From UHGV virus genome UHGV-0348865: 64,000 nt of DNA. One strand, written 5' to 3'. This document shows, piece after piece, positions 40,947 through 43,056 of this stretch (position 1 is its first letter; every line of letters begins with the position of its first letter). Both the position numbers and the translations under genes were made by a program. Source of the stretch: a virus. A model generated the notes under the pieces. The model was not told where the DNA came from and searched no databases. It was given only the letters and a program-made list of their open reading frames with translations.

Positions 40947-41025
40947 TCAATGGGTGCCTCTGACAAAGGGGCACAATTTAAAGGTTAATTAGATGAAAGG
41001 GTTTACCCTTCAGGTGGATTAGAAA

Positions 41026-43056
41026 ATTTGTGGCATCGTATTAGCTGGCGGTAATCTGTCAAGCACTGATTTAGACGTATTTAACCAACTCTTTTATGCT
41101 GGGGTATTCCGAGGGCAACATTCCTCTGGTATCTTTGGTCAGCGTAAGAGCACTAAGGAAGTCTTCACTTATAAAGAGGCACTTCCTTCTTTCGCATTCA
41201 TCCTACAAGATGAGTACAAGAAGCATACCACTGGTGAAACAGCTTACACTGTAGCGCCTTCATGGATTGTTGGTCACAGCCGTCATGCAACGAAAGGTGC
41301 AGTTAACGCCAAGAACGCCCATCCTTTCCAACATGGTAACATCACTCTGGTTCATAACGGAACCTTGATGGACCAAGATCTGTTACCTGACAGCAAAAAC
41401 TTCGAGGTAGACAGTGAGAACATCTGCCACTCTATTAACACTATTGGTGCAGCAGAGACTATTCAAAAGCTAGATGGTGCTTTCACCTTAATCTGGCATG
41501 ATGCTTCTGATAACCGTCTTCATATCATCCGTAACGAAGAGCGTCCATTCCACCTCGCACGTTGCAACAGAGATTGGTTTGGTGCTTCTGAAGAAGATAT
41601 GTTGATGTGGATTCTTAAGCGTTCTAAGTCTCATAAGAATCGTATTGACGAGCATTTTGAATGTAAAGTCGGTACAGAGTATATCTTTGATATGTCAAAC
41701 AACAGCATGACTTTGGTTGAAGAGGTCGCCCACGAGCTTCCGGTTTTTACGGTAGCCAATCGTTGGGGCAATTATTACTCGAACAATTACAGCCAAAGCA
41801 ACTATCAAAGTTCCTCAAAAAGCAGTACAAGCAATCCTTACGACACGAAGCCGGGAGTGACAGCGGCAGACGTTCGTCGAAGAAACGCAGTGGTAAGTCA
41901 AAACAAAATCGCAAGCGATCGAAACATTGATATTCGCCGCGATATGACTGTGGAAATCACTCCGCATGAGTTCGTTCCTTATGCAACCGCTGGTGCTGTT
42001 CCTTCTCGTGGTAAGATGATTGGTTATATCTACGATGAGAAGTCTCAAGAGTACATTGAAGGTGACGTTCATAACGTAGACATTAAGGCTTATCAGGATG
42101 CCCTGAAAGACCCTAAAATTGTTTACCGTGGGACAGTATCCTGCATCTCCGAAGTTAATGCTATGGTTCGTCTAGTGATCACAGCAGGTCGTTTTGTTGA
42201 CCCCTCTCTGGAGAAAAGGGAGCCTGAGTCAACTACTGCTGACTTCGATGATGATATCCCTTTTGATATGAATGATAGTTTCGTCAACAAGAATGGCGTT
42301 ACTATCACTCGTAAATTCTGGGAAGCGCACTCTCATGGTGATTGTGGTGGTTGTGATAAGCACATTGATTGGAAGGATGCACCTAAAGCAGTCTTTGCAT
42401 ATCAGTGCTATTGGCATCCTGAGTGTCTGGAAGGTTTGACTAAACCTAAAGAGGAAGAAGAGGAGGAAACTCCTATTGGTGTTTGTGAAATCTGCGGTGA
42501 AGTTAAAACAGAGAATGAGTTCGATGATGAACTCAGTCGTCTTCGTGGTGAAGATATCTGTAAAGTCTGCGCTGTAGAAGTAAAGAAGAAAGTATCTAAT
42601 GCTACGATCAAAGATGGTTATGTATGGATTAAAGCAACAGATACAACAAACGCCCGTCGTCCTGAATTTGCTTTACGTGTAACTGAAGATATGATCGGTC
42701 GTATGACTGTATTACCTTCCTCAGCGAAACAGACAGGCATCACTCTGGAGGATGTTGTTGATGCTTATGTTGAGAAACGTAGCAACAGTATTTTTGCAAT
42801 CTCAACTAAGCCAAAAAAGGAGGAACCTGCTGAGAAAGCAGGTGTGTTTCCTGAATCACGAACAGCTCTCCGCAAAACTGTTGTTAGCTTCGACGGAAAC
42901 CGAAGCACTGACTTCACCAAAGCCATGTGGTCAACCCTCGGCTACTGCTCAGAGTGTTTTAAGCAGATTCCGTGGCGCGATGCTGAAAGTTGTACGCTTG
43001 GTTCTATGAATCAAGTTTATTGTAATTCTCCTAAATGTTCATTGAATAGAGGTTAA
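41026..43056 (+). CDS. class-II (Ntn) glutamine amidotransferase domain protein with Cys-rich C-terminal region
   Basis: frame is open from 41023; CGIV...HSRHATKG...NAHPF...LVHNGTLMD motifs of Ntn amidotransferases; start codon unclear (ATT at 41026 precedes catalytic Cys codon; in-frame TAG at 41020). Confidence 0.55.
   Translation: MCGIVLAGGNLSSTDLDVFNQLFYAGVFRGQHSSGIFGQRKSTKEVFTYKEALPSFAFILQDEYKKHTTGETAYTVAPSWIVGHSRHATKGAVNAKNAHPFQHGNITLVHNGTLMDQDLLPDSKNFEVDSENICHSINTIGAAETIQKLDGAFTLIWHDASDNRLHIIRNEERPFHLARCNRDWFGASEEDMLMWILKRSKSHKNRIDEHFECKVGTEYIFDMSNNSMTLVEEVAHELPVFTVANRWGNYYSNNYSQSNYQSSSKSSTSNPYDTKPGVTAADVRRRNAVVSQNKIASDRNIDIRRDMTVEITPHEFVPYATAGAVPSRGKMIGYIYDEKSQEYIEGDVHNVDIKAYQDALKDPKIVYRGTVSCISEVNAMVRLVITAGRFVDPSLEKREPESTTADFDDDIPFDMNDSFVNKNGVTITRKFWEAHSHGDCGGCDKHIDWKDAPKAVFAYQCYWHPECLEGLTKPKEEEEEETPIGVCEICGEVKTENEFDDELSRLRGEDICKVCAVEVKKKVSNATIKDGYVWIKATDTTNARRPEFALRVTEDMIGRMTVLPSSAKQTGITLEDVVDAYVEKRSNSIFAISTKPKKEEPAEKAGVFPESRTALRKTVVSFDGNRSTDFTKAMWSTLGYCSECFKQIPWRDAESCTLGSMNQVYCNSPKCSLNRG

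Follow-up and report, generated by a model that had tools for sequence, protein, structure and literature searches.

A probable AUU initiation codon behind a conserved nine-codon mini-ORF at the amidotransferase gene of a phiEco32-like phage

AUU start codons are very rare, and initiation factor IF3 discriminates against them, as established for infC. In Escherichia coli, infC and pcnB are the only AUU starts named (PMC3592434). Osterman et al. (PMC3592434) built a reporter after the natural infC start site. Its translation was about double that of a comparable single-cistron AUU construct and fourfold lower than with AUG in its place, and re-initiation and de novo initiation were about equal contributors in this stop-start arrangement. 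When start codons were compared separately in a single cistron, expression from UUG and AUU was six to eight times lower than from AUG and GUG (PMC3592434). The expression of pcnB, the poly(A) polymerase gene, is limited by its AUU codon according to Binns and Masters (2002), as that work is cited in PMC3592434. Here we describe an infC-like initiation region in the virus genome UHGV-0348865. The window, i.e. the whole stretch of 64,000 nucleotides (nt) that was analysed, belongs to a phiEco32-like Kuravirus (96-97% identity to phiEco32, NJ01, SU10 and others across 2.5 kb) and carries a gene for a class-II glutamine amidotransferase. In the best reading of this locus, to which we give a probability of roughly 85%, the gene starts at AUU 41026, the Shine-Dalgarno sequence (SD) AGGUGG for this start lies inside a nine-codon mini open reading frame (mini-ORF), the layout is that of infC, and the output would be low and controlled.

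Start codon of the amidotransferase gene

The features of the initiation region and of the gene, in window coordinates, are as follows.
40978-41033, + strand: invariant block of 56 nt in the alignment, from the first SD through the mini-ORF, second SD, stop and AUU to the Cys-Gly codons
40980-40984, + strand: AAAGG, SD of the mini-ORF, 8 nt before ATG 40993 and inside the invariant block
40993-41022, + strand: mini-ORF of nine codons and TAG (MKGFTLQVD, stop), read from the sequence
40997-41010, + strand: small hairpin AAGGG-UUUA-CCCUU within the mini-ORF, read from the sequence
41012-41017, + strand: AGGTGG, SD for the AUU start, with an 8-nt spacer to ATT
41020-41022, + strand: TAG that ends the mini-ORF, in the amidotransferase frame and 3 nt before ATT
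41026-41028, + strand: ATT, proposed initiation codon, aligned with the ATG of homologues and taken as the start in the phiEco32, SU10 and Bas91 annotations
41026-43056, + strand: class-II glutamine amidotransferase coding sequence (CDS), 676 amino acids (aa), 76.1 kDa (Pfam; third-position-dominated codon divergence)
41029-41031, + strand: TGT, catalytic Cys of the class-II (N-terminal nucleophile, Ntn) amidotransferase (family alignment, structure profile)
41365-41367, + strand: TTG, first canonical start of the long ORF, which would delete Cys1; used in some automatic annotations (phage Paul)

From 40993 the codons read ATG AAA GGG TTT ACC CTT CAG GTG GAT TAG AAA ATT TGT GGC ATC GTA. The original prediction, made from the letters of this window, had placed the ATG, TAG, ATT and TGT at 40993, 41020, 41026 and 41029; re-reading returned all four positions, the ribosome-binding site before the ATG and the nine codons that precede TAG. 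It had also placed an in-frame TAG directly before ATT. An in-frame TAG is indeed upstream, but the AAA codon at 41023-41025 separates the two, and the stop lies two codons before ATT. No canonical in-frame start was found upstream of the Cys codon behind this stop. As in infC, the AUU thus has no canonical alternative, and its use as the start would follow from its position.

The homologues support this position. ATG stands immediately before TGT/TGC-GG in 69 of the 80 homologous IMG/VR loci, exactly where the window has ATT, and the same arrangement, with ATG on the ATT position, is found in Salmonella phage 7-11 and Cronobacter phage GAP52. An ATG-TGT start in homologues had been named as evidence against an anomaly at this site. 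Such starts do occur in distant homologues, and they argue for AUU initiation, since their ATG aligns exactly with the ATT.

The enzyme itself carries the GATase class-II signature (Pfam GATase_6, 1.1e-14, 55 bits against a cut-off of 27, residues 76-176) and also matches GATase_7 (3.6e-6). In the family profile alignment, the Cys of codon 41029 corresponds to Cys1 of mature E. coli GlmS (1xff, 4amv) and PurF (1ecb), with E-values of 1e-14 to 1e-21 against these structures, and it is invariant across 28 homologues in the family alignment. Because it aligns with Cys1 of GlmS and PurF, it is the N-terminal nucleophile, as had been proposed, and it directly follows the initiator Met position, as in class-II amidotransferases generally. 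An IMG/VR homologue (L059) begins with ATG-TGC-TGT (Met-Cys-Cys-Gly), i.e. with an additional Cys codon before the catalytic one.

The start at ATT has itself been in GenBank since the phiEco32 deposit, where gene 83 (ABY52884.1) is a CDS of 2031 nt from this ATT. It is the only ATT among the start codons of the 128 phiEco32 CDSs (112 ATG, 13 GTG, 2 TTG and 1 ATT). The CDS likewise begins at ATT in the GenBank records of SU10 and BASEL Bas91. Taken together, these data strongly support initiation at AUU 41026, which had been one of four possibilities listed, and which would give Met-Cys-Gly-Ile-Val.

The real product might instead start downstream, at TTG 41365 or another internal start, the 5' region being a decaying remnant and the product lacking the catalytic Cys. 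The longest ORF with a canonical start is that from TTG 41365 to 43056 (563 aa), gene callers and many GenBank records annotate truncated products, and SU10 proteomics detected the protein with nine peptides at a listed mass of 63.8 kDa. This mass, however, is simply that of the truncated 563-aa database entry, so the SU10 table is silent on the N-terminus; the paper uses the truncated mass although the SU10 GenBank record has the full 2031-nt CDS. A start at TTG would cost the protein its first 113 residues, the catalytic Cys among them, though not the whole catalytic domain as first stated (GATase_6 covers residues 76-176). These 113 codons (41026-41364) are open and under purifying selection. 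Their differences between genera fall mostly in third positions (16/13/56 and 21/15/67 for the three codon positions), which indicates that the 5' part is coding and translated. All family-invariant residues in this part (C2, G3, R29, G30, H84, R86 and H110-G112) are present in the window protein, and nowhere is the locus more conserved than in the 56 nt around the start. A downstream start is thus very improbable.

Database models of the gene rarely include its start. Among the 60 phage records listed, 51 have no annotated CDS over the start and nine have a CDS covering it. The ATT is annotated in a minority (phiEco32, SU10, BASEL phages and LAMP); in most, the CDS begins at an internal ATG or TTG, with loss of the catalytic Cys, or nothing is annotated there. 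Gene callers disallow ATT starts, and models therefore lose the catalytic cysteine or are missing. Such truncated models would mislead functional or structural work on the amidoligase/amidotransferase/ATP-grasp module to which the gene belongs.

Conservation of the leader

The initiation region was compared in a three-way alignment of 3.7 kb between the window, KBNP1711 (Nieuwekanaalvirus) and ECBP2 (Suseptimavirus). While 59% of the columns are invariant, the longest invariant run is the 56 nt at 40978-41033, and the next is 23 nt. The block is invariant in seven sequences across Kuravirus, Nieuwekanaalvirus and Suseptimavirus, and is limited by the SD of the mini-ORF at one end and by the third codon of the enzyme at the other. 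Synonymous or third codon positions nearby differ by 50-60% between these genera; neutral drift should therefore have altered many of the 56 bases. Beyond the alignment, a 63-nt leader sequence was found in 99 phage records, 69 of them identical, 28 with one mismatch and two, from Aeromonas phages, at 92% identity. The 97 E. coli/Shigella phage records have 98-100% identity over these 63 nt, and the leader is also present in metagenome and IMG/VR contigs. A search of IMG/VR for leader variants, with the 5' half as the pattern, returned only five phiEco32-like contigs that were already known. Because 99 independent phage records carry the leader (69 identical and 30 near-identical, besides the contigs), a sequencing or assembly error that created the TAG or the ATT, which had been considered at the outset and for which only the oddity of the site speaks, is ruled out.

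Aeromonas phage BUCT695 is a member of another family, the Grimontviridae. It has an amidotransferase with only 35% protein identity to that of the window, yet its leader is 88.6% identical over 79 nt. Its mini-ORF also has nine codons (MKGLTLQAD, stop) and is followed by the same TAG AAA ATT TGT. Both of the two substitutions in this mini-ORF are non-synonymous, and one is in the loop of the hairpin at 40997-41010. Since both alter the peptide, the constraint seems to be on the RNA or the ORF and not on the peptide sequence. The short upstream leader ORF, another of the possibilities listed by the original prediction, is thus present and extremely conserved, and it is compatible with AUU initiation, not an alternative to it.

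Propeptides are known in some Ntn amidotransferases. Ribosomes could accordingly start at ATG 40993 and read through TAG by means of a suppressor or near-cognate tRNA, with a 12-residue propeptide cut off autocatalytically as in Bacillus subtilis PurF. The ATG has its own SD and shares one frame with the TAG and the Cys codon, and a metagenome contig (L123) has a 163-aa upstream ORF in frame across the same TAG. However, ARAGORN detected no tRNA anywhere in the window, phiEco32 encodes a single tRNA, Arg(TCT), and 14 other phiEco32 genes end in TAG, so there is no sign of stop-codon reassignment or suppression. Moreover, both BUCT695 substitutions change the peptide, three ATT/ATC lineages (L068, L074 and L089) have no in-frame canonical start upstream, and the well-placed AGGTGG serves the ATT directly. 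Readthrough, also listed originally, is very improbable. The window lacks the tRNA-Arg(TCT) gene of phiEco32 (66351-66427) and has in its place about 880 nt unaligned to phiEco32 (30890-31770).

Other forms of control were considered for the leader. A structured RNA regulator, such as a riboswitch or a known cis-regulatory RNA, was rejected on finding no Rfam family and no significant fold; the Rfam scan of 40850-41150 at a permissive threshold gave only sub-threshold matches (16 bits against gathering scores of 44-70). The hairpin within the mini-ORF is thermodynamically unremarkable (leader fold z-scores of -0.2 to -0.8), and both BUCT695 substitutions disrupt the minimum-free-energy hairpin in which the SD would be sequestered. 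Programmed frameshifting does not apply, the mini-ORF and the gene being in one frame, and inspection found no X_XXY_YYZ slippery heptamer in register. A scan for sigma-70 promoters and terminators gave nothing relevant near the leader on the + strand. Just upstream of the invariant block there is one further element.
40954-40974, + strand: conserved stem-loop in the spacer behind the amidoligase gene (GUGCCUCU, loop GACAA, AGGGGCAC), predicted fold
This stem has a compensatory change in the alignment with Suseptimavirus (GTGCC...GGCAC to GCGC...GCGC). It is terminator-like but has a poor T-run, and one GenBank record annotates a terminator there.

Recurrence of ATT and ATC starts and the gene neighbourhood

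The phiEco32-like phages are not alone in lacking an ATG at this position. ATT or ATC precedes the Cys codon in 15 of 79 distinct initiation regions, representing about nine lineages, so that the enzyme family uses these codons in roughly one lineage in ten. ATT-TGT/TGC occurs in the phiEco32-like phages, BUCT695 and the loci L024, L025, L068, L073, L074, L098, L123 and L125, and ATC-TGC in L089. Most of these lineages have no canonical in-frame start upstream. Each ATT/ATC locus has a strong SD 6-8 nt upstream (AGGAGA, AGGAGGA, GGGGAGGA, GGAGGA or AGGTGA). The median predicted pairing energy of the SD with the 16S 3' end is -9.3 kcal/mol for ATT/ATC loci versus -6.4 kcal/mol for ATG loci (Mann-Whitney p = 0.001-0.004), and the AGGTGG of the window forms a duplex of -7.2 kcal/mol. 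A stronger SD at ATT/ATC loci is how compensation for a weak start codon would be expected to look.

The amidotransferase genes of the metagenome contigs L123 and L125 are 99% identical to that of a third contig, L122, in the first 430 nt. L122 starts with AAGGAG...ATG, and L123 and L125 with ATT. From the ribosome-binding site outwards, the upstream DNA of L123 and L125 is unrelated to that of L122 and to each other, except for a common GCAGGAGGATTAGAAAATT, which indicates that the AUU initiation region travels with the gene. The 18-mer GGATTAGAAAATTTGTGG has seven matches in 596 Gb of genomes, six at random non-amidotransferase sites and one in a phiEco32-like contig within a metagenome-assembled genome. 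Given this rarity, its recurrence at amidotransferase starts in IMG/VR and metagenomes, among proteins of 35% identity, is not due to chance. In these comparisons the amidotransferase gene behaves as a mobile cassette with its breakpoint at the initiation region.

The spacer between the amidoligase and amidotransferase genes of BUCT695 (L010, 1300-1500) contains frame-shifted pieces left from an HNH homing endonuclease (…GDCWLWTGCINSDGYP…) and from a helix-turn-helix segment. In Pseudomonas phage UFV-P2, the HNH gene at this junction is intact (PMC3890496). The junction therefore seems to be a recurrent insertion site.

These observations bear on another explanation of the block, in which the ATT start is real but the invariance reflects a DNA or transcript signal (a promoter with a 5' stem-loop, an operator, or a homing or recombination site) and not a translated mini-ORF. 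A protein-binding operator or a transcript 5' end may lie inside the 56 nt, and the homologous spot in Grimontviridae relatives, TTTAAATGTAAA, resembles the core TAATGTATA of the middle and late promoters of phiEco32 and SU10. The decayed endonuclease just upstream in BUCT695, the intact one in UFV-P2 and the mobility of the gene as a cassette that breaks at the initiation region also fit such a signal. On the other hand, each half of the leader is single-copy in the window, the leader thus being neither a repeated promoter motif nor a repeat element, and no promoter is listed there for SU10. The block edges coincide with the SD of the mini-ORF and the third codon of the amidotransferase, and on either side the sequences diverge again abruptly, where co-conversion would leave a gradient. 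On balance we consider a DNA or transcript signal unlikely to be the cause of the invariance.

In the Grimontviridae relatives L008, L009, L010 and L032-L036, a TTTAAATGTAAA(A/T)TAG motif is located about 20-35 nt upstream of the amidotransferase start. It contains an ATG-TAA start-stop pair, and the window has TTTAAAGGTTAATTAG at the homologous place.

The amidotransferase gene lies among other genes of a conserved phage module, assigned by Pfam.
38413-39219: COOH-NH2_lig gene
39843-40946: Amidoligase_2 gene
43502-44695: ATP-grasp gene (weak match)
45202-45621: GGACT/AIG2 gene
LUZ24-like Pseudomonas phages have an identical gene order of the amidoligase/amidotransferase module (PMC3890496).

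Residues 259-676 of the amidotransferase gave no Pfam match, and the C-terminal SIS sugar-isomerase domains of the GlmS type were not found in them. The label "L-glutamine-D-fructose-6-phosphate aminotransferase" in many records is thus unsupported, the enzyme being without a sugar-isomerase domain and its PDB matches being restricted to the amidotransferase domain. The C-terminal extension of about 430 aa (41800-43053) is Cys-rich and contains a repeated Cys motif (CGGCDKHIDWKDA…CYWHPEC, CEICG…CKVC, CSECFKQIPWRDA…CNSPKC), which looks like duplicated zinc-ribbon-like modules.

Proposed translation of the leader and comparison with known systems

The junction of the window shares its register with that of infC. 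Read directly, the E. coli thrS-infC junction is TTG GAG GAA TAA GGT ATT AAA GGC, that of the window CAG GTG GAT TAG AAA ATT TGT GGC, and that of L123 CAG GAG GAT TAG AAA ATT TGT GGA. In each of them the two final sense codons of the upstream ORF hold the SD, and the stop, a 3-nt spacer and ATT come next. When the infC region TTGGAGGAATAAGGTATTAAAGGC is set against CAGGTGGATTAGAAAATTTGTGGC of the window, the SD, stop, spacer and ATT line up without any shift, the AGGTGG taking the place of GGAGGA in the infC initiation region. In the window the upstream ORF likewise ends 3 nt before AUU, with the SD in its last codons.

This layout suggests two routes to the start. Some ribosomes would bind the second SD (AGGUGG) directly and initiate de novo on the weak, IF3-discriminated AUU, and others would finish the mini-ORF at UAG and re-initiate 3 nt downstream on AUU. 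By either route the initiator tRNA would insert formylmethionine, and removal of the Met would expose the catalytic Cys of the N-terminal peptide CGIVLAGGNLSSTDLDVFNQLFYAGVFR. The outcome would be a low, tunable production of a glutamine-hydrolysing enzyme. As IF3 discriminates against AUU, the output of amidotransferase would depend on the host IF3-to-ribosome ratio. We infer the translation of the mini-ORF, the coupling, the sensitivity to IF3 and a selective reason, namely the limiting of a glutaminase. The SD, ATG, length and stop of the mini-ORF, invariant in 97 records and kept in BUCT695, support the coupling indirectly.

Several points weigh against this reading. First, the mass in the SU10 mass-spectrometry table is that of the truncated model (63.8 kDa), so the N-terminus is deduced from sequence. 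Second, none of the predicted folds of the leader is significantly stable (z-scores of -0.2 to -2.2 overall), and hence no structure makes the mini-ORF necessary. Third, a GTG or ATG stands in frame a few codons before the ATT of L025 and L098 and would allow a short propeptide there. Fourth, L068, L074 and L089 have no upstream ORF ending in the spacer; coupling is therefore not a universal requirement. Finally, the overlap of SD, ORF and start signals hardly explains the fixation of all 56 bases.

Going further, the 56-nt leader could be a dedicated translational control device and a portable low-expression module, in which translation of the mini-ORF is required for re-initiation on AUU and the output tracks ribosome flux and host IF3. 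We hold this extension to be doubtful, if possible. The output might also track the glutamine supply, the sole Gln codon of the mini-ORF (CAG 41011) overlapping the SD of the AUU, so that a paused ribosome would mask this SD. Since the AUU initiation region AGGAGGAUUAGAAAAUU travels with amidotransferase cassettes in unrelated phages, it would be a portable module for a potentially toxic glutaminase.

The closest copies of the locus are phiEco32 gene 83 and those of SU10 and the BASEL phages, in which the gene and leader are the same as in the window. The annotation of gene 83 mentions neither the mini-ORF nor the invariant leader, nor that ATT recurs among the homologues. A full-text literature search for phiEco32, ATT and start codon returned nothing, the original phiEco32 paper being outside the accessible literature. 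In the accessible literature, we found no mention of the invariant leader of 56 nt, of a mini-ORF at a junction of the infC type, or of repeated ATT/ATC starts with strong SDs in this phage enzyme family.

As an enzyme, the phage protein resembles GlmS and PurF in its N-terminal Cys nucleophile directly after the initiator Met and in the common fold family. It differs from them by the lack of a sugar-isomerase or phosphoribosyltransferase domain, by the Cys-rich C-terminal region of about 430 aa and by the non-canonical start codon. B. subtilis PurF offers a parallel in its short in-frame N-terminal extension before the catalytic Cys, whose removal would activate the enzyme. In the window, however, a stop codon interrupts the extension, and the SD/AUU pair makes a propeptide unnecessary. 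The likeness to pcnB lies in an inefficient AUU that keeps the level of an enzyme low, although pcnB is a host gene and not a phage gene. Compared with infC, the window has the same placement of SD, stop, spacer and ATT, but its upstream ORF is a mini-ORF of nine codons and not a full gene. Furthermore, the amidotransferase is unrelated to IF3; there is therefore no autoregulatory loop as in infC, and any dependence on IF3 would only reflect the state of the host. The phage amidotransferase family is thus a natural system in which initiation at weak codons, and re-initiation, can be studied free of the feedback by IF3.

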